Source of the DNA: a virus
Length of the DNA stretch: 64,000 bases
Virus record (IMG/VR): IMGVR_UViG_3300038410_000026
Location: 31,393 to 95,392 of that record
Reading direction: 5' to 3' (one strand)
Below the pieces are notes generated by a model. That model saw nothing but the letters and a program-made list of their open reading frames with translations. It had not been told where the DNA came from and searched no databases. The stretch's first letter is position 1; the number at the start of each line of letters is the position of its first letter. Positions 7,561 through 19,079 of the stretch are shown here, in pieces. The translations under genes and the position numbers were made by a program.

Positions 7561-7721
7561 GGCTCCGAGTCGGATTTGAAACGCTTGAGTTCCGAAGCCA
7601 TGGCGTCGAAGGCGCGACCAAAATTCCGATGGTTCAAACTCTGGATGAATTCCATCGTTTTGGGATCTACGCGACCGAACACCAGGACTCTTTTCCTGTC
7701 TTCAGGTAGCTTGGGGCGCAT
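7524..7721 (-). CDS. Small ribbon-helix-helix-like DNA-binding protein
   Basis: RPKLPEDRK-RVLVFGRVDPKT pattern; strong promoter immediately upstream. Confidence 0.55.
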   Translation of the reverse strand: MRPKLPEDRKRVLVFGRVDPKTMEFIQSLNHRNFGRAFDAMASELKRFKSDSEPYASGSEGTIET

Positions 7722-9821: not shown

Positions 9822-11984
9822 ATGCCGCGAGACGCGGGCGTCACCGAATTGATCGAATACTTCGATCAGCCCGAGCGTGCCGAGCAGTTGGACAAGCTGA
9901 CCGCCAAGGAGATGCGCGTCATCGAGGCAGAGATTGAGCGTTGCCAGCGCGATTTCGTTTATTGCGCCCGCAACTATTTTTGGATCACGGATAAGGATGG
10001 AGTGGATCAGCTATTCGACCTGTGGGAATCGCAGGAGTTAATCCTCGAAAAACTGGATTACCTTTCGCAGCGTAAGCGGCCTCGCCGCCTCATGGTCATC
10101 AAGGCCCGCCAGCTTGGTTGCAGTTTGTTGATCGAGGCTCTGATTGCGTGGCAGACGATGTTCTACCCCAATCAGAATGCGCTGATCGTATCCCATTCGG
10201 ACGATCATGGCGGCTACCTGTTCTCGCTGATGCTGCACATCTACGATCAGATGCCGTGGTGGCTCAAGCCCATGCTCGCCACGCGCAAGTACGACACGGG
10301 CCTCCATTTCGCCAATCCAAACCTCGACATGCGCCGCATCAGCCCAGGGATGAACTCCAAGGTTGTGGTGCAGTCGGCCATGCAGACCACGGGCGTCGGC
10401 CAAGGCTATCGTCTGTCGGCTGTCCATGCCAGTGAATACTCGGACTGGGAGGAGCGCCGGGCCAAGGAGATCATCGATGGCGATCTCCGCTATGCACTAT
10501 CGGAAAAGCCCAAGACCTTCGCCATCCTCGAAACGACAGCCAAAGGAGCGGGCACCTACACCGAGAGCCTTTGGCTGGCTAATGTGAAGCTGGCAGAAAG
10601 AGCCGAATGGTATCCGCTCTTTCTGCCCTGGTTCTTTGAAAAGGGGCGCTTTATTCCCCCGGAAACCGGGTGGGTAGTGCCAGAACGCGAAGCGGCCATG
10701 CGTGACCGCGTGAGCAAGGAATGGGTGCGGTGCGACAATCCGAAGTGCGGACGTTTCAAGGAATCTCATTTCCTGGGAGACCCATTGTTCGGCTTCCCCT
10801 GTCCGGACTGTGCTTCAGGCATACTGCGGGAATACATATTGCAGGACGATCAGCTTTGTTGGATGTGGCAGGAGCGCATCAACAAGGAAGCCAAGGGTTC
10901 GGAGTCGGTCAAAGAATTACGCCAGGAACTTGCCACAACGCCCGAGGAAGCGTTTCAGTTGACAGGAATCCAGGTTTTTCCTGCCGATTGCCATGAATGG
11001 GTGAACGAGACCGTTGAGCAGTATCCTTTGGCCGTGGGAAACCTCGATGACAAGGGACGCTTTCACGGACCCAAGAGTTGGAAAACCGGAGAGTGCTGGC
11101 AGGAGTGGTGCAGGGCGGATCATCGCTATGAGCCGGAGCACCCGTTGAAAATCTGGGAGTGGCCCGATCTGAAGCGCCGTTATGTGGTTGGCGTGGATGT
11201 ATCGGAGGGGATCGGGGACAGTGATTCCGATTCCGACTTCTCGGTGGGCTGGGTCAATAAGTTGGGAGAAAACGGCGGTCCAGATGTGCATGTGGCCACT
11301 TACCGCTCAAACCGCATCGACCCAGGGGCTTTCGCGGTTCCTGTAAACTTTTTGGGGCGCTGGTATAACGATGCCCTGATGAGCATCGAGTACAACATCT
11401 TCCAGACCACCGCAGATCTGGTCAAGAACTACTTCATGTATCCGAACCTGTTTCGCTGGAAGCATCCGGATAACGACAAGATGTTGAGCCACAAGGTTCA
11501 TTGGATGACCCAGATAAACACCAAGTCGAAGCTGTGGCAAACCGCCATCAAATGGTTACGGGCAAGGCTGTGGGTTGTCCGAGATCCCATTTTCGCGGAG
11601 GAAATGAAGAGGTTTCAGAAGGAAGACTACGAGGACAAGAAAGCTTCGGCGGCATCGGGAAGCCATGACGACGTGATTATGGCGGCTATGATCGCCCTTT
11701 ATACCAGTCACGATCTCGATTGGGATGAGGCCGGGGTAGGGACTCCCCAGCATATTGCCAGCGATGCCGTTCTGCCTTCCGCCAACTGGATGATGCGCTG
11801 TCGGCGCTGCGACCATGCTTTTCCGGCAGACAAGCCATCGGTTCCAGGATGTCCGAATTGCGGTTCGATCATGCTATCTGGGCGCAAGATGGAATCGGAA
11901 AGCGCAGCCCGGACCCTTGATTTTCAGGAAATGGCATATAAAGGTCGAGGAAGTAGCGAGAATTTCGATTACGATCTATTGTGA
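9822..11984 (+). CDS. terL: Terminase large subunit
   Basis: Walker A region KARQLG, Walker B VHASE, coupling motif ETTA, nuclease GVDVSEG and HDDVIMA; extra CxxC pairs. Confidence 0.93.
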   Translation: MPRDAGVTELIEYFDQPERAEQLDKLTAKEMRVIEAEIERCQRDFVYCARNYFWITDKDGVDQLFDLWESQELILEKLDYLSQRKRPRRLMVIKARQLGCSLLIEALIAWQTMFYPNQNALIVSHSDDHGGYLFSLMLHIYDQMPWWLKPMLATRKYDTGLHFANPNLDMRRISPGMNSKVVVQSAMQTTGVGQGYRLSAVHASEYSDWEERRAKEIIDGDLRYALSEKPKTFAILETTAKGAGTYTESLWLANVKLAERAEWYPLFLPWFFEKGRFIPPETGWVVPEREAAMRDRVSKEWVRCDNPKCGRFKESHFLGDPLFGFPCPDCASGILREYILQDDQLCWMWQERINKEAKGSESVKELRQELATTPEEAFQLTGIQVFPADCHEWVNETVEQYPLAVGNLDDKGRFHGPKSWKTGECWQEWCRADHRYEPEHPLKIWEWPDLKRRYVVGVDVSEGIGDSDSDSDFSVGWVNKLGENGGPDVHVATYRSNRIDPGAFAVPVNFLGRWYNDALMSIEYNIFQTTADLVKNYFMYPNLFRWKHPDNDKMLSHKVHWMTQINTKSKLWQTAIKWLRARLWVVRDPIFAEEMKRFQKEDYEDKKASAASGSHDDVIMAAMIALYTSHDLDWDEAGVGTPQHIASDAVLPSANWMMRCRRCDHAFPADKPSVPGCPNCGSIMLSGRKMESESAARTLDFQEMAYKGRGSSENFDYDLL

Positions 11985-11991
11985 GGAGCCT

Positions 11992-12528
11992 ATGGCGAAA
12001 GGCAAGGAAGTTACATTTTCTGTTGACATTAACCTATCTGAACATAATGTCAACTTATTGCTGGCTTCAGCTAAACAGTCCGGACCCAGTTCTCAAATCA
12101 TCGGACGCATGGCGGCGGGGGTCCTGACTGAAATCGCAGAAGGTGGGGTGCTGCTTCCTAAGTCGGTGGTAGACCGGATCGTGGAGATGATGGGCAGCTT
12201 ATCCAACCCCCGTGACCTGATCCCGGTGGTTGAAAAAGCATATAACCGCAAAGACGGGCAGGTGGCCGCTGAATGGCGCATCGATCCGATCTATATGCCT
12301 TATCTCGAAGATGCGGCCATCTCGCAGGGCAGAACCGTGCAGCAGCTAATCCAGGATTGCATGGACACGGCCATGGACAAGGGGTGGTTGTACGAGCTTG
12401 ATCCGCAGCCCCACAGGCTCTTGATCACAGCCGAAGACATGGAAGCATTGCGTGGGGCGCTGGGCAAGGATGATGTCCACGGCTCTGATCTCGTGGAATA
12501 CATTCTTCAGCAGCGAGAGGCAGCCTAA
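11992..12528 (+). CDS. Hypothetical protein
   Basis: GAGGAG SD before ATG 11992. Confidence 0.7.
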   Translation: MAKGKEVTFSVDINLSEHNVNLLLASAKQSGPSSQIIGRMAAGVLTEIAEGGVLLPKSVVDRIVEMMGSLSNPRDLIPVVEKAYNRKDGQVAAEWRIDPIYMPYLEDAAISQGRTVQQLIQDCMDTAMDKGWLYELDPQPHRLLITAEDMEALRGALGKDDVHGSDLVEYILQQREAA

Positions 12529-12917
12529 TGCCGATTTACGAAGCACTATGCGAACGGTGCAACGTAAAAACCGAATGGTATGCCAAGTCGCGTACCGACG
12601 AGAATAAGCCCTGCCGATGCTGCGGAGGCGAAACGAGACGTTTGGCGAGCGCGTTTGGTGTGATCTGGACGGGCGCAATTACGCCGAAGTACACCGATCA
12701 CAACAAACCCGATTCGGCTGGTCCGCACTGGGCCTATCGGGTGCGAAGCTCGAAGAGCGGAAATCCCGAGCCGGTGCTGATCGACACGTGGGCCAAGCAG
12801 AAGCAGTTCTGCAAGGAAGAAGGATTGGTGGTTCCGTCTGATTTGCCGTCCAATGCGGAGGTTTCTGCGGATGGAAAGAAGCTCCAATCGGCTGGCATGT
12901 CCGGACAGTGGATATAA
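12528..12917 (+). CDS. FmdB-like zinc-ribbon protein
   Basis: MPIYEALCERC...CRCCGG..RRL.S signature. Confidence 0.75.
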   Translation: MPIYEALCERCNVKTEWYAKSRTDENKPCRCCGGETRRLASAFGVIWTGAITPKYTDHNKPDSAGPHWAYRVRSSKSGNPEPVLIDTWAKQKQFCKEEGLVVPSDLPSNAEVSADGKKLQSAGMSGQWI

Positions 12918-12948
12918 AGAAAACCACGTCCAGATCTGGACATAAACT

Positions 12949-14817
12949 ATGGCTACTTTGGAGTTGGTTCCTCGCGGCCCGGTGGCTTATGGCCGCAGCG
13001 GAAACATGGACTATGCCGATGACTATCGGCGGAAAATGATCAAGTGGCGGGATGCTGCCCGCGACGAAGCCATCAATACCGTTCGTCTCAATCCAGAATT
13101 CACGGATGTCGGCAAGTACATCGATTGGATTGAAGGACGCCAGTGGAGAGAAGATCGACCGAAGTACCGTTCCCGCTTCTTCGACAACCGGGTAGCCCGC
13201 CTCCGCGTTGATTCCATCAGCTTGTTGACCGACATCCGGCCCGCGCTTGAAGTGACGGCGGCAGTGCAGGCATACGAAACCCAAGCCAAACTCTGCGAGG
13301 CCATCGTCAAGCATGAGTGGTACAGGCTGAACCTAGATCTTGAAATCGGTAAGGTTATCGATCACGCTCTGTTTTCAGTGGGTTACTGGAAAATCGGCGC
13401 TCTGATGCCGGGGGTTATGACGATATCCCCTTGCGGTATGGATAAAGTCTTGCCCATCATGCCGGGAGACAGTCTTCAGGAATCAGTGGGTGTTTTATAT
13501 CGTGGTTACAAGCCAATACAATATTTCCGTGCGAAATGGGGGGAGAAGGCCAACGGTCTTGAGAAGTACGCCACCAGCATCACCTGGACCAATAGTTCAA
13601 ACGAATACGTAAGGCCGGGTCACATCACCGAATACACCTGGAACTCGCTCTCCCCACAGATGAAGCGGCACCTCGGTATGCGCTCCATGCGCAAGCAACC
13701 CCAGGACCGCAGCCCCTTTCCGGTGATCGAACACGAAGAATATTGGATTGACGATCCCGAGATCAACGATTCCGAGGTGGAGGTGACGGTCAAAGATCCG
13801 GATATGTCGCCATCCGATCACAACTATTGGTATCTGGTCCCCGCTGGCGGAAGGCTATGGCCGCGCAAGCGGCTGATCGTTTTCGGCGGCGACAAGATCA
13901 TGTACGACGGCCCGAGCCCTTATTGGCACGGGCTTTACCCCTTTGCCGAACTGATTCTGAATCCCATGGTCTGGGCTCCGGGCGGTCTGTCGAAGTATCG
14001 GGACATGATGCCCATCGCAAAGGCTCTCAACGAGGTGGGTGCCGGGACGCTAGATGTGGTGAAGCGGGCCATTAACCCGGTGGTGGTCACCAAGGAAGGC
14101 GCGATCCGCCAGCAGACCTTCGAGCAGTTTCAGCCGGATATGCCGGGAGGCAGGCTGAAGATGACCCCCAACTCCTCGGTGTCTCAGGACCTGCGATACA
14201 TCGATCCGCCCAATATACCGGCCTATGTGGGGACCTTCCATCAATACATCAACCAGGAATTCGACCGTCTCTCCGGGACATTGGATATAAACAAATTGAG
14301 CGGTAAGAAACAGGTTCCTGGGGGCGACACCATCGAACAGATGCGGGATTCCATGCAGACCGGATTCCGGTTGGAGTCGCGCTACATGGAGCCTTTTCTG
14401 CGCGACGTTGGAGCACAGTTCATCTCGAATATCTTTCAGTTCTATACGCGCCAGCAGCGCATGAGGATTCTCGGGGCGGACGGTCTTACCTGGGAAGACT
14501 TCGACTACGATCCGGACAACATGACCCCCTGGTCTGAACCACGCTATGATCACTGGAAAAAGTTCGTCATCCGTGTAGCTCCGGGGTCTTTGCATGGTGG
14601 AGCCAAGGATCGCAACAAGCAGGTGGCCATCGCCCTATTCCGCTTGGGAGCAATCTCCCGCAGGCATCTGCTCCGCACGCTAGATTTTCCGGATGGGTTA
14701 ATCGAGAAGGTCGAGCAAGAACTAAAAACGGAGCGAGAATCACTGCCTCCTATGGCCACTGGCAAGGGCCGCGTCCCCCGCATGACTCGCAGCGCCCGCA
14801 ACGCCAGCCCCTTCTAG
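12949..14817 (+). CDS. Portal protein (P22/podovirus-like)
   Basis: 622 aa, located between terL and the scaffold/capsid genes; YDGPSPYWHGLYPF segment and helical C-terminus. Confidence 0.85.
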   Translation: MATLELVPRGPVAYGRSGNMDYADDYRRKMIKWRDAARDEAINTVRLNPEFTDVGKYIDWIEGRQWREDRPKYRSRFFDNRVARLRVDSISLLTDIRPALEVTAAVQAYETQAKLCEAIVKHEWYRLNLDLEIGKVIDHALFSVGYWKIGALMPGVMTISPCGMDKVLPIMPGDSLQESVGVLYRGYKPIQYFRAKWGEKANGLEKYATSITWTNSSNEYVRPGHITEYTWNSLSPQMKRHLGMRSMRKQPQDRSPFPVIEHEEYWIDDPEINDSEVEVTVKDPDMSPSDHNYWYLVPAGGRLWPRKRLIVFGGDKIMYDGPSPYWHGLYPFAELILNPMVWAPGGLSKYRDMMPIAKALNEVGAGTLDVVKRAINPVVVTKEGAIRQQTFEQFQPDMPGGRLKMTPNSSVSQDLRYIDPPNIPAYVGTFHQYINQEFDRLSGTLDINKLSGKKQVPGGDTIEQMRDSMQTGFRLESRYMEPFLRDVGAQFISNIFQFYTRQQRMRILGADGLTWEDFDYDPDNMTPWSEPRYDHWKKFVIRVAPGSLHGGAKDRNKQVAIALFRLGAISRRHLLRTLDFPDGLIEKVEQELKTERESLPPMATGKGRVPRMTRSARNASPF

Positions 14818-14852
14818 TTTCTGTAAACAATTAGAAATAAAGGCACTTACGC

Positions 14853-14881
14853 TTGACAAAGCCAGAAGTGTAACTTATTTT
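14853..14881 (+). promoter_or_regulatory. sigma70-type promoter of the head operon
   Basis: TTGACA-17-TATTTT in an AT-rich gap. Confidence 0.6.
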
Positions 14882-14922
14882 GTTGGTGTCAGCGGCGGTG
14901 CGTGACAGAAAGGGGGTTCTGC

Positions 14923-14961
14923 ATGGCAAGACGAAGGCGGCGTGGCAAGAAAGCGCGGTAG
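14923..14961 (+). CDS. Arg-rich micropeptide MARRRRRGKKAR
   Basis: AAAGGGGG SD; ATG..TAG. Confidence 0.6.
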   Translation: MARRRRRGKKAR

Positions 14962-15059
14962 TGCTTCTGCCCGAGCGGAGCGCGGGACGTAATCTTACGT
15001 CATGCGTCTGATCGCGTCCCGTCTCGATTCAAGACGGGAATTAAACAAGGAGGTGGAAT

Positions 15060-15101
15060 ATGGCACGTCGAGGCCGTCGCCGTGGTCGGAAACATCGCTA
15101 G
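15060..15101 (+). CDS. Arg-rich micropeptide MARRGRRRGRKHR
   Basis: Consensus AAGGAGGT SD; ATG..TAG. Confidence 0.7.
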   Translation: MARRGRRRGRKHR

Positions 15102-15115
15102 AAAAGGAATCCGCT

Positions 15116-15178
15116 ATGGCTAATCCAAGGCAGTTGGCCCGAAAGGGAAAGAAAAGAATGTCGAAGAGGTGTTACTGA
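15116..15178 (+). CDS. Basic micropeptide MANPRQLARKGKKRMSKRCY
   Basis: AAGGA SD; TGATG coupling to the next gene. Confidence 0.55.
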   Translation: MANPRQLARKGKKRMSKRCY

Positions 15179-15492
15179 TGGCAAGAGGCAAGGGTCAGTA
15201 TCAGATTGTGGGCGATGAGCAGAAACTGAGCCACAAGCCGGTTAGCTCTCCGTCCGCGAATCCGAAGAGTGGGCAATCGCAACTCGTAGGAGATTCGGTT
15301 TCCCTTTCGCGCACGCCCGTACAATCACCCTCCGCCAATCCTCGCAGCGGACAATTCGATTTGGTCGGGGATACTGTTTCGCTGAATCGTACTCCCGTGA
15401 AGGGATGGGGTTCGGCTGCGAATCTTCCGATGTCTGAACGCGCTATTCAGCAGTCGAACACGGCTGCTGGAAAAGGCGGCAAGAAGAAGTAA
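15178..15492 (+). CDS. Small protein with three ~27-aa repeats (Q..LVGD.VSL.RTPV.SPSANP.SG)
   Basis: Internal repeats visible in the translation. Confidence 0.75.
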   Translation: MARGKGQYQIVGDEQKLSHKPVSSPSANPKSGQSQLVGDSVSLSRTPVQSPSANPRSGQFDLVGDTVSLNRTPVKGWGSAANLPMSERAIQQSNTAAGKGGKKK

Positions 15493-15888
15493 ATGGCTGA
15501 TACCCTGCCCTTCCCGGCTACCCCTCCAGCCGTGCGATCCCAACAGACCGCAGCGCCCGCTCCGGTCTTCATGATGGCTGGCCGAGACCAGATGATGGCA
15601 CAGCGGCCAGGAATGCAGCAGCAACCCGGCGCAGCGGGGAATCCGATTCAGCAGTTGAAGTCCAAACTGGGCGAACTGGAAACCCTGACCGGGGACCTGA
15701 TGATTCTGCTGAGGACCGTGCATCCGCCGTCCGGAGCGTTGCTTGTTCCGATTGCGCAGGCTGGAAAGGCTTTAATGTCGCAGGTTGCGGAAATTGAGCA
15801 GAGAGCGAGCGGGGCGCTTCCCTCGGGTTCTGAGGGTGCTCCGGTTCCGACACCTGCGGAGGGGGCTCCGAGAAGGGCAGCGGCCTAA
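15493..15888 (+). CDS. Hypothetical head-region protein
   Basis: Abuts the previous gene; P/A/Q-rich. Confidence 0.7.
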   Translation: MADTLPFPATPPAVRSQQTAAPAPVFMMAGRDQMMAQRPGMQQQPGAAGNPIQQLKSKLGELETLTGDLMILLRTVHPPSGALLVPIAQAGKALMSQVAEIEQRASGALPSGSEGAPVPTPAEGAPRRAAA

Positions 15889-15903
15889 AGAGAGAGGGAT
15901 GGA

Positions 15904-16791
15904 ATGGGAGTTTTTGACGACATCTTGGAAAACGTCGAGGATGACGACAAGGAAATCTTCGACAAGTACCCGCAGCTTAAAGAAACGGTAGATGGCTTAG
16001 AGGCCCGTTACTCTGATGCCGACAACCGCCTGAAGGGATGGGAAAGCTGGGCGCTCAAGCACTACAACTACGACAGCGGGAAAACCACTGAGCAGATCGC
16101 AGCCGAGCGGAAAGCCCAAGAGATGGAAGCCAGAGCCAGGGCGCTGGAAGCTTTAAAGGATACGGAAATGACATTCGATGAAATCCTCGAAGGATTGAGG
16201 GGACAGGGATTTGTCAAGCGCGACGAGATCCCCGAAGTGGTTAAGCAGGCCACTTCGGGCTTGGTGTCTCGGGAGGAATACAGCAATTCTCAAAACCAAC
16301 TGGCCTTGGGATTTGAGTACATCTACAAGAAGACCGCCCATCTCCCGTCCAAGCACATGAAGGAATTCGGCGATCCGATGAACATGAATGACTTCATGGA
16401 CCATTGGCAGAAGTCCGGGATCAAGGACCCGGATCAGGCTTACGAATCCTTCATCTCTCCCTTGAAGCAGGAGCGCGACAAGGTGGCGGCGGAGAAGCGG
16501 GAGAAGGAATACCAGGATCGGGTCGAAGCCGCCCGCAAGGAAGGCGAGGAAAAAGCTCGCCGAGAAATGTCGATGGGGCAGGGTGGAAGGATTCCCAGCG
16601 ACCAAGGCGGAACATCCGGGATGGGGATGTTGGAGCGACAGATTATGCAGAAGCGCACGCAATCCGGGGCACAGAAGGATAATCCCCCCGAAATCCCTGA
16701 CAGCGTGAAGCTTGGCGACGGGACACTGGCCCAACTCGGGTACGAAAAGTACCTGAAAGGAGAACTCGGAGCGGACAACAAAGTTCAATAG
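15904..16791 (+). CDS. Capsid scaffolding protein
   Basis: Charged coiled-coil protein immediately upstream of the major capsid gene. Confidence 0.7.
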   Translation: MGVFDDILENVEDDDKEIFDKYPQLKETVDGLEARYSDADNRLKGWESWALKHYNYDSGKTTEQIAAERKAQEMEARARALEALKDTEMTFDEILEGLRGQGFVKRDEIPEVVKQATSGLVSREEYSNSQNQLALGFEYIYKKTAHLPSKHMKEFGDPMNMNDFMDHWQKSGIKDPDQAYESFISPLKQERDKVAAEKREKEYQDRVEAARKEGEEKARREMSMGQGGRIPSDQGGTSGMGMLERQIMQKRTQSGAQKDNPPEIPDSVKLGDGTLAQLGYEKYLKGELGADNKVQ

Positions 16792-16805
16792 GCTCCGAAT
16801 GAACT

Positions 16806-17774
16806 ATGGCGCTGACTTTAACTGAGATCAACGCTTACACTCTCCAGTATATTGTTCCGAAGACCACTGATGTGATCTTCCTGAACAGCCCGGTTTTCAC
16901 CCGGCTGCACAGTCGGAACATGGAGAGGTTTTCGGGCGGCTTGCAGATTCAGCGGCCAATCATTGTTGGCCAATTGAACGGTGGTCCGCTTGGCCGTGGC
17001 GATCCGATGAACATCGATTTCGTCACGACCGATACGGCACTCGTCGTGGACATGAAGGCGTACTACACCAACATCACGCTTTATGGATTCGACTCCATGA
17101 AGAACGATGGGGAGCAGGCGGTTTTCTCCCAGGTGGAGTTGAAATTCCAGAACGCCTCGCTCACGATGGCGAAGCTGCTCGCAACAGACATGTATCTGAA
17201 CGACGTGGCCCCTCGCACGAAGGCCCTGACTGGATTCCAGCAGTGGTACGACGACGGGAACACCTACACAACCATCGGGGGAATCCTCCGTTCGGATGTG
17301 CAGACGGTGGGCACGGTCGGCGGCTTGAACTCCTATGTGGCGACCTTGACCACATTCTCGCTCCAGGCGGTGAACACGGCCTATGGAAACGCATGGTTCG
17401 GCAACGACCACGTAGATCTAATTCCGGCCACGCAAAATGGCTGGAACCTGATGTGGAACGCCATGCAGCCCCTCCAGCGTTATTACGACAAGGAATCGGA
17501 TGTCGGCGTAGCTGGCTTCCAGTCCTTCCGTTTCAACGCTGCCGAGGTGGTGGTGGACAAGTATATGTCAACCGGAACCAACGGAGTCATGTATGGGTTC
17601 AACACCAAATACATCGAGTGGTATTTCTCCACTAATCCCAAGTTCCAGTTCGGGTTCACCGGATTTAAGGAAACGAACAATACCATCGATGTGGCGGGCC
17701 AGTTCCTGGTCGGCTCAAATATTGTGGTGCCGAACCCGCGCAGCGGCTTCAAGCTACTTTCTACGCTGTTCTGA
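16806..17774 (+). CDS. Major capsid protein
   Basis: 322 aa; DVIFLNSPVF, GGLQIQRPI, GGILRS, GFQSFRFN..VVVD and N.R..GF motifs typical of HK97-fold podophage coats; synteny. Confidence 0.88.
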   Translation: MALTLTEINAYTLQYIVPKTTDVIFLNSPVFTRLHSRNMERFSGGLQIQRPIIVGQLNGGPLGRGDPMNIDFVTTDTALVVDMKAYYTNITLYGFDSMKNDGEQAVFSQVELKFQNASLTMAKLLATDMYLNDVAPRTKALTGFQQWYDDGNTYTTIGGILRSDVQTVGTVGGLNSYVATLTTFSLQAVNTAYGNAWFGNDHVDLIPATQNGWNLMWNAMQPLQRYYDKESDVGVAGFQSFRFNAAEVVVDKYMSTGTNGVMYGFNTKYIEWYFSTNPKFQFGFTGFKETNNTIDVAGQFLVGSNIVVPNPRSGFKLLSTLF

Positions 17775-17788
17775 GGAGGTGAAAGACT

Positions 17789-18217
17789 ATGGTAACCAGT
17801 GGAATTGCGACAGATCTTGGCGGTCAAGTAACCTTCCGGCGCTTCACCATCACCTACGCTGATCTGACGGATGCCGATACTTCGCAGACCATCAACCTGT
17901 TCACTCTGCCGAAAGGCGGAATTATCCTTGGTGTTCGCATCAAGCATTCGACCGCTTTTTCGGGTGGTACGGTGGCCACCTGCACGGTTTCGGTGGGATC
18001 TGCTGCCGGTACGGCTACCGATTTCGCTTCGGCCTACGATATCTTTTCGGCTGCCGGAGATACGGCCTTCCAGGTCACATCCGAATTCAAGGCTGTAACT
18101 TACGTAGCCGACACGGTGACTGCCACTGTCACCACAACGGTAGGGAACGTGACTGACACTACGGCTGGATCTGTGGATATCGATGTCTGCTTCCTGAACG
18201 TGACTACTCCGCTGTAA
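17789..18217 (+). CDS. Putative capsid decoration protein
   Basis: Beta-rich, T/A-rich; LFTLPKG.II motif; follows the capsid gene; GGAGGT SD. Confidence 0.6.
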   Translation: MVTSGIATDLGGQVTFRRFTITYADLTDADTSQTINLFTLPKGGIILGVRIKHSTAFSGGTVATCTVSVGSAAGTATDFASAYDIFSAAGDTAFQVTSEFKAVTYVADTVTATVTTTVGNVTDTTAGSVDIDVCFLNVTTPL

Positions 18218-18239
18218 AGCTGAGGGAGGTGATCCAAAA

Positions 18240-18449
18240 ATGTCGATTGAAGCTTATCACGCGCCGTTTTCACCGGCAGGAACGAGCCAGTATTGGGGGA
18301 CGGCAGCCCCAGCAGCCGCAACAGACGGAGCCTATCAGTTGGGAGATATCGTGTGGAACACGGTCCCCACTTCCGGCCAGCCCATCGGTTGGGCTTGCAG
18401 CGTAGCCGGAAGCCCTGGGACCTGGATAGCGATGGCGAACTACGCATAA
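18240..18449 (+). CDS. Small virion protein (GDIVWN..P..G..GW.C..AG.PGTW motif)
   Basis: GGAGGT SD; motif common at fibre termini. Confidence 0.65.
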   Translation: MSIEAYHAPFSPAGTSQYWGTAAPAAATDGAYQLGDIVWNTVPTSGQPIGWACSVAGSPGTWIAMANYA

Positions 18450-18458
18450 GAGGCTCAC

Positions 18459-19079
18459 ATGGCAGCTATTTCAGAATTCAAGAACAATCAGCCGCAGAGC
18501 GCGGTTCAGTATGGGACCACGGCAACGGCGGCTCTCTTGGAGGGGGCCGGAACTTCATCCAGCCCCTACTCTAGCGGCACCACTGCCGACAAGAATTTCA
18601 TCGGCTATTGGCTGAAGACCACCGCCCTCAGCGGCACCACCAGGGGCGTGTATCTCCGGCTCTATATTGCCGGGGCCGGATGCTCTGGCGAGGCTGCCCG
18701 CATTTTTACCACGGTCAATGGCGTAGCGGGAGGCACCGGAGGTATCCATGGCGCTCACATCACGGGCAGCCTGGATGCCACTGGAACCTGCGGTGGACTG
18801 TTGGTGGGATGCCGAGCGACCCTTGGAGTCAGCGAGGCTACCCGGAGTTTGTCCGGAACCTTCGCCGCGCTTCAGGTGGACAGCGACATCGGCACGGGGA
18901 ACACAATGCCCGGAACCACCAGCTTCATCCGGGTGGCGAACAACAACTCGGTGGCGATTGCGAACCTGTTCGAGATTCCCACCGGGGTTGTGACCAGAAA
19001 GGGCTCCGCTCCGAGCGCGAGCGATGGTCTGGCATGTAGGATCAATGGAGCTTTGGCCTACATCATGGTCGGGACATAG
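18459..19079 (+). CDS. Gly/Thr-rich virion protein (head fibre-like)
   Basis: Composition and position. Confidence 0.6.
   Translation: MAAISEFKNNQPQSAVQYGTTATAALLEGAGTSSSPYSSGTTADKNFIGYWLKTTALSGTTRGVYLRLYIAGAGCSGEAARIFTTVNGVAGGTGGIHGAHITGSLDATGTCGGLLVGCRATLGVSEATRSLSGTFAALQVDSDIGTGNTMPGTTSFIRVANNNSVAIANLFEIPTGVVTRKGSAPSASDGLACRINGALAYIMVGT

Follow-up and report, generated by a model that had tools for sequence, protein, structure and literature searches.

Conserved micro-genes predicted to encode Lys/Arg-rich peptides ahead of the head genes of uncultured tailed phages

Accounts of how phages meet the electrostatic cost of packaging DNA into a head have so far named host polyamines, metal ions and, in the case of T4, larger internal proteins. 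In T4, the phosphate charge is balanced by the lysines of about 1000 internal protein molecules together with polyamines, an arrangement proposed to speed packaging (PMC3012670). The J protein of phiX174 is a small basic internal protein, found within the capsid, that participates in DNA packaging (PMC11945456). Among tailed phages, mycobacteriophage Patience carries an unannotated 37-codon gene, gene 111, directly after the portal gene, the product of which was detected in CsCl-purified particles by mass spectrometry, and gp10 of the same phage is listed as a virion protein (PMC4324244). Tiny basic proteins, often unannotated, also exist in ribosomes (PMC10085706, PMC10618245). Although small basic virion and packaging peptides are already known, gene-encoded polycations of 12-20 residues, set in mini transcription units within the head modules of tailed phages, are not, and we found no description of such micro-genes in the literature on tailed phages.

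The stretch of DNA analyzed here, referred to as the window, comprises 64,000 nucleotides (bases 31393-95392) of a 95,392-bp IMG/VR virus record with a CheckV completeness of 94%. The record is that of an uncultured phage of ~95 kb that carries a large terminase, a P22-type portal and an HK97-type major head protein.

The slot between the portal and the head genes

The genes and signals that frame the micro-genes, in window coordinates, are as follows:

9822-11984, + strand: large terminase
12949-14817, + strand: P22-type portal (phrog_156; PF16510, 1.1e-07), the upstream edge of the micro-gene slot
360-nt gap between the portal and the 104-aa gene, + strand: holds the micro-genes
14853-14881, + strand: sigma-70-like promoter, with -35 TTGACA (14853-14858), an N17 spacer and -10 TATTTT (14876-14881)
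14910-14916 and 14923-14961, + strand: micro-gene 1, SD AAGGGGG and ORF1, MARRRRRGKKAR (12 aa, free-standing)
14962-15046, + strand: structured spacer with two competing stems and no U-run 3' of them
15047-15053 and 15060-15101, + strand: micro-gene 2, consensus SD AAGGAGG and ORF2, MARRGRRRGRKHR (13 aa, free-standing)
15104-15108 and 15116-15178, + strand: micro-gene 3, weaker SD AAGGA and ORF3, MANPRQLARKGKKRMSKRCY (20 aa, coupled)
15178-15492, + strand: 104-aa repeat protein, the first larger gene of the head block
between the 104-aa repeat protein and the scaffold-like protein, + strand: 131-aa protein
15904-16791, + strand: acidic scaffold-like protein (295 aa, net charge -14)
16806-17774, + strand: major head protein

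The head genes at 15904-17774 (scaffold-like and major head protein) were assigned through phrog_9953 (5.9e-24), and the charge of the scaffold-like protein, which has a very acidic N-terminus, was computed. A DNA search of GenBank phages with the head block returned zero matches, Rfam over 14000-16000 gave nothing beyond chance-level matches, and a search of genome contigs for prophage relatives or a host yielded only MAG portal matches of 26-34%. ARAGORN called a single tRNA-Ile (anticodon TAT) on the - strand at 2522-2595. The 104-aa protein harbors three repeats of roughly Q[IL]VGD...L..[KT]PV.SPSANP[KR]SGQ, is basic (net +8) with a C-terminus of GKGGKKK, and has no Pfam or PHROG match; judging from its Atlas model (pLDDT 0.39), it is probably disordered. 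Homologues with the same repeats are positioned 3' of the micro-ORFs in most relatives.

An original prediction, made from the letters of the window, had placed in this gap a TTGACA promoter followed by three SD-bearing micro-ORFs, the third coupled to the next gene, as well as a hairpin between the first two, and direct reading found every one of these elements where it had been placed. The promoter is the top sigma-70-like match in 12000-19000, scoring 10/12. The SD of ORF2 lies 6 nt from its ATG, and the TGA of ORF3 shares the A at 15178 with the ATG of the 104-aa gene. Lysine and arginine together account for a fraction of 0.67 of the residues in ORF1, 0.62 in ORF2 and 0.40 in ORF3; ORF3 ends in Cys-Tyr, whereas ORF1 and ORF2 do not. 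All three escape gene callers. A longer candidate, a 58-aa ORF at 15002-15178 that extends ORF3 upstream, was rejected, being devoid of an SD, starting inside the hairpin region and not conserved.

The predicted hairpin has arms TCCCGTCT (15017-15024) and AGACGGGA (15032-15039). The minimum-energy fold of the spacer picks a rival stem instead, pairing 14984-14990 with 15014-15020 and overlapping the 5' arm of the hairpin; the minimum free energy is -35.5 kcal/mol (z -3.1), with an equally good fold in 2 of 200 shuffles. As for the ORFs themselves, arginine is encoded by AGA, CGA, AGG, CGG and CGT in ORF1 and by CGT, CGA, CGC and CGG in ORF2; since ORF2 is built mainly of CGN codons, it is not a purine-rich RNA element.

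Departure from chance and conservation in relatives

Very short ORFs that about half of the relatives lack could be functionless products of chance in a GC-rich leader. The statistics of the genome argue otherwise. The two strands of the window together contain 616 ATG-started micro-ORFs of 8-30 aa, of which just two, ORF1 and ORF2, each with an SD, have a K+R content of at least 60%, and in the full 95,392-bp genome these two are the sole ATG-started micro-ORFs that combine an SD with a K+R content of at least 42%. When the 360-nt gap was shuffled 20,000 times, a single shuffle contained one or more ORFs at the 60% cut-off and none contained two. The richness in Lys and Arg is also confined to the frame set by ATG and SD (0.62-0.67 vs. 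0.00-0.25 in the other frames). This genome-wide rarity and the shuffles exclude chance, as do the recurrence at a specific position, the synonymous-only divergence (basic-for-basic swaps aside) and the inheritance over deep branches described below. We consider chance ORFs to be extremely improbable, a reading already effectively refuted by conservation.

We gathered relatives by protein alignments of the portal and capsid protein over viral and metagenome contigs; alignments were needed, as a single-sequence search of viral contigs with the portal returned nothing. About 60 loci (L numbers) were retrieved, representing roughly 35 distinct lineages. At least 17 lineages of uncultured phages, with portal identities of 41-58% and capsid identities of 47-79% to the window, harbor one to three SD-bearing basic micro-ORFs on the + strand, ahead of the head genes. 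The same criteria applied elsewhere in the related loci, on either strand, gave only a few stray matches (the portal-anchored set alone spans ~219 kb). Peptides from the carriers include the following:

L047: MARRHKRGKKAR
L035: MARHKKGRKKSRK
L061: MARRGRKRAAKRSKKRV
L017: MARRAKRKGGRKGARKAKRV
L025: MYRRGRKRGKKSRK
L064: MARKKHRGGKKRK
L055: MDRKKKGRKSHR and two more
L053 and L067: two peptides each

Comparison of ORF1 with its counterpart in L047 bears on the level at which the micro-ORFs are kept, with 12 of 39 nt differing but only 5 synonymous changes (one of them AGA to CGT), 2 basic-to-basic replacements (R to H and R to K) and no other change. Together with the codon usage, this comparison bears out the original prediction that arginine codons are varied and that the peptide rather than the DNA is repeated. 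Residue order between the two is also closer than composition explains (z 5.5). Similarity specific to residue order was likewise seen for ORF2 with L025 (z 4.4), L061 (z 3.6) and ORF1 (z 3.0), and for ORF3 with L061 (z 4.2) and L056b (z 2.4). The comparison of ORF2 with the L035 peptide includes five basic-to-basic swaps. HMMER found no match to single peptides or to the family profile in PDB, Pfam, NCBIfam or PHROGs, as expected because the sequences are short and biased, and we claim no homology. These data indicate that the micro-ORFs are very probably genuine coding genes; the pattern of substitution points to purifying selection at the level of the peptide, and what is selected is the peptide, not the RNA and not translation as such.

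The micro-genes are absent from about half of the related lineages, some of them with identical gene order (L010, L023, L034 and L049). On the portal tree, presence is clustered, requiring 4 changes vs. 8.9 with shuffled labels, and spans branches of more than 1 substitution per site; absence is found in two well-supported clades as well as in scattered lineages (L010, L023 and L049). Taken together, the clustered presence, the deep branches and the scattered absence imply a trait that is old, inherited and under selection, yet dispensable. The closest cultured phages (Mx8, Mx9 and Bradyrhizobium ppBjS10J-1; ~26% capsid identity) contain no such micro-ORFs. The original prediction had staked itself on conservation in relatives, and what we found is that position, SD, length, composition and, in part, residue order are kept.

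Across lineages, the usual unit comprises a -35 box, a strong SD, an ORF of 12-33 codons and a GC-rich stem-loop. In 13 of the 17 lineages, a TTGAC box is found 30-150 nt 5' of the first micro-ORF (0.117 expected by chance per locus; binomial P about 1e-9), with TAnnnT at 17-18 nt from the box in 8 of these 13. In the relatives, the GC-rich stem-loop begins 12-23 nt past the stop of the micro-ORF; those of L017 (z -5.95) and L053 are canonical intrinsic terminators with U-runs, starting 12-19 nt past the stop, and folding is also significantly stronger than in shuffles for L043, L047 and the window, though not for the others. The sequences of the stem-loops vary between lineages.

Two classes of micro-gene recur: a free-standing class, positioned 42-136 nt before the next gene, and a coupled class, in which the stop overlaps or abuts the next start, as in window ORF3, L011 (offset -4), L026 (-1), L035 (+2), L054 (+2), L055 (+1) and L056 (-1). 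The window thus carries two free-standing copies and one coupled copy. Two or three diverged copies per genome are found in the window, L053, L055, L067, L035 and L011. In L055 (2990-3313), three basic micro-ORFs of 12, 24 and up to 37 codons lie in a row, the last two TAATG-chained and abutting the next gene, which reproduces the three-gene layout of the window with different sequences. L066 has a second copy, MARHKKGRKAKR, at 7569-7607; it lies 2.5 kb 3' of the capsid gene, flanked by two unrelated large ORFs, and has an SD of its own as well as a G5/C5 stem-loop followed by a T-rich tail.

A few other features of these loci were noted in passing. In L066, a 15-nt motif, GTCTTGACGTAGACT, is shared by ~2055-2070 and 7678-7692, that is, upstream of the first micro-ORF and again just past the terminator of the stand-alone copy, and probably represents a phage promoter present twice. 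In L053, just 5' of the promoter of the first micro-ORF (~2641-2770), the sequence resembles the 3' part of a tRNA gene (GGTTCAAATCC...CGCCACCA), with a T-run stem-loop behind it. A LAGLIDADG-like ORF (YIAGF[AI]DADG) interrupts or precedes the major capsid gene in L009 (3991-5693) and L066 (4308-4952); the capsid match is split in L009 and covers residues 94-320 only in L066, pointing to a homing endonuclease, an intron or an intein within the capsid gene of both.

Candidate roles of the peptides

With the promoter box conserved and stem-loops or terminators placed past the stop, the micro-gene appears to be a short unit built for high output. The presence of 2-3 diverged copies suggests that dosage matters, which a stoichiometric role would suit better than a regulatory one. 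This bears on the possibility that the micro-ORFs act in cis, whereby their translation would load ribosomes, prevent premature termination or control read-through of the stem-loop, and thereby set the level of head-gene expression; in one version this would be attenuation, possibly sensing the supply of Arg or Lys. A promoter, a short ORF, a stem-loop or terminator and then structural genes is indeed the layout of a classical attenuator, the window spacer offers two mutually exclusive stems, and in the coupled class the micro-ORF overlaps the next gene at its start. Nevertheless, we regard action in cis as quite unlikely, as judged by the following: 1) R, K and H swap freely, with the codons of no single amino acid being kept; 2) the ORF takes no part in the stems, which start 12-23 nt past its stop, and an antiterminator reaching into it was not seen; 3) the hairpin of the window has no U-run; 4) residue order is kept beyond composition; 5) two or three copies per genome would be needless; 6) the L066 copy, with its own SD and terminator, sits between unrelated genes with no head operon behind it. 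Points 1, 2, 3 and 6 speak in particular against the Arg-sensing leader peptides that had been offered as one option in the original prediction.

We surmise instead that a late-type promoter and strong ribosome-binding sites would drive the production of three peptides of 12-20 residues, almost purely Lys/Arg, from two free-standing genes and one translationally coupled gene that head the capsid-assembly genes. Once translated, these peptides would most likely serve, in trans, as a nucleic-acid-binding polycation made in bulk, a role suggested by the high-output mini-units, the multiplied copies, the co-expression with head proteins and the dispensability of the trait. The preferred form of this explanation is that of a gene-encoded counter-ion, a substitute for polyamines, which would be made in high copy number, bind DNA and screen its charge during head filling; the peptides may remain with the packaged genome and would then be present in the virion. 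DNA during head filling is favored as the target on account of the constant position among procapsid genes and the three precedents in J, T4 and Patience.

The nucleic acid bound could also be RNA. Modeled on bL37, bS22, bTHX, eL41 and arginine-rich-motif peptides, the micro-peptides would be made late, lodge in rRNA pockets or on structured mRNA and bias translation or RNA stability toward the late genes of the phage. Very small, basic and often unannotated ribosomal proteins do bind rRNA cavities (PMC10085706, PMC10618245), bL37 of M. smegmatis (PDB 5O60 chain 3) starts with MAKRGRKK, resembling several family members, and structured RNA adjoins the micro-ORFs. Set against this, the family profile finds neither bL37 nor another chain of the PDB at E up to 10, the constant position within head morphogenesis points to assembly and not to translation, and, given that the stem-loop sequences differ between lineages, no conserved RNA partner is evident. 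Taking both sides into account, we deem an RNA or ribosome target unlikely.

A location among procapsid genes would also suit assembly cofactors that neutralize the acidic scaffold, the portal or the inner capsid wall during procapsid assembly or scaffold exit, with no need to stay on the DNA. The net charge of -14 and the very acidic N-terminus of the scaffold-like protein are in line with such a partner, and in L054 the micro-ORFs directly precede the scaffold gene. However, scaffold acidity does not track the presence of the peptides, and relatives with the same scaffold and capsid do without them, making a role as assembly cofactor very unlikely in our estimation. Polycationic stretches destabilize outer membranes, and peptides of this type might also be directed at the host, compacting or blocking its nucleoid or RNA, or aiding permeabilization of the envelope at lysis. 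Small ribosomal polycations do display antimicrobial activity (PMC10085706), but the micro-genes belong to the head module, not to early or lysis modules, and the peptides have neither a signal sequence nor a hydrophobic segment, so that a host-directed function appears highly improbable.

Returning to the counter-ion, two predictions that could be computed from the relatives gave it no support. Genomes of carriers were expected to be longer, but carriers and non-carriers both extrapolate to ~100 kb; scaffolds of carriers were expected to be more acidic, but acidity was not higher, in a comparison in which the automatic scaffold picks were wrong for some loci. Neither a capsid-targeting signal nor a protease site is evident in the peptides, and profile searches detected no homology to DNA-binding families. 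Further weak points of the counter-ion are that the head is filled via the portal motor, with no evident entry route for a 12-residue peptide, and that about half of the relatives manage without the peptides. The DNA-condensing core peptides of the original prediction stand as the leading idea, with the support for them coming from analogy and context. By that analogy, we tentatively regard a role of the micro-peptides as DNA counter-ions in packaging as a real possibility, if somewhat short of an even call. The more specific proposition that a sizeable group of ~100-kb tailed phages encode polyamine substitutes of 12-20 residues, made in bulk from mini-units running from promoter to terminator, which enter the head with the DNA or accompany it there and neutralize a meaningful share of its charge, is in our view rather doubtful.

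Were the counter-ion to hold true, tailed phages would own a gene-encoded means of meeting the electrostatic cost of DNA packaging. The micro-genes, at 12 codons, would rank among the shortest conserved genes known, overlooked within a much-studied block of phage genes. They fall below every ORF cutoff, and trypsin leaves nothing of peptides so rich in Lys and Arg; gene callers and tryptic proteomics alike would then be missing a class of virion or packaging component. The signature of promoter, SD, micro-ORF and stem-loop provides a search rule for other phage groups.

Comparison with known systems

Among regulatory systems, the attenuators of trp, his and pheA resemble the present locus in having a short ORF after a promoter and before a stem-loop and structural genes. 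Unlike these attenuators, the micro-ORFs have no conserved run of codons for one amino acid, the stem does not reach into the ORF, the copies are multiple and include a stand-alone one, and the order of residues in the peptide is kept. Among cellular proteins, bL37 (24 aa), bS22 (33 aa) and eL41 share with the micro-peptides their size, charge and a start of the MA[KR]RGR[KR][KR] type, but they are the products of cellular housekeeping genes, as opposed to genes of a phage head module; for bL37, the family profile gave 0 matches against all PDB chains, 5O60 chain 3 included, at E up to 10, and none in NCBIfam.

In T4, the internal proteins IPI-III are folded proteins of 8-20 kDa that are loaded into the scaffold core via a capsid-targeting sequence and cut by the prohead protease. 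The peptides described here, in contrast, consist of little beyond a basic run and contain no targeting sequence of the T4 type, and no prohead protease was identified between the portal and capsid genes.

Patience, likewise a tailed phage, has a small basic ORF immediately behind the portal gene, in the corresponding slot. According to the record, gp111 starts with MARIGRRKRRR and has a K+R content of 38%, while gp10 (JN412589, L071 403-600) is 65 aa in length with about 45% K+R. In PHROGs, gp10 belongs to phrog_1375 and phrog_5320, both of unknown function, and gp111 has no match; larger polycationic post-portal proteins are recognized but uncharacterized phage families. As opposed to the micro-peptides, gp111 and gp10 are two to five times longer and include non-basic segments, and Patience represents a different phage lineage with a different head module (protease plus MuF). 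With gp111, ORF2 shows marginal similarity (z 3.4, p 0.002, without correction for the 24 comparisons made), and ORF1 and ORF3 showed no sequence relationship to gp111 beyond composition.

The J protein of the Microviridae (phiX174 and G4) and VP8 of gokushoviruses share several features with the micro-peptides, in that they are tiny and extremely basic and are encoded among morphogenesis genes beside the capsid gene. J and VP8 are small, highly basic peptides of about 20-40 aa, and the window peptides too are small and highly basic. A Pfam search (Microvir_J) with family members of at least 20 aa at E up to 10 gave no match, window ORF1 and ORF2 being too short for the tool. J has a hydrophobic or aromatic C-terminal anchor, which is missing in ORF1 and ORF2, with only ORF3 ending in Cys-Tyr. 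The present peptides, at 12-20 aa, are also shorter than J and come in 2-3 copies. Finally, J stems from T=1 ssDNA phages that have neither portal nor terminase, whereas the genome described here is ~95 kb in length and encodes both. By analogy, J is the nearest functional model in a phage for a peptide counter-ion encoded by a gene of its own.
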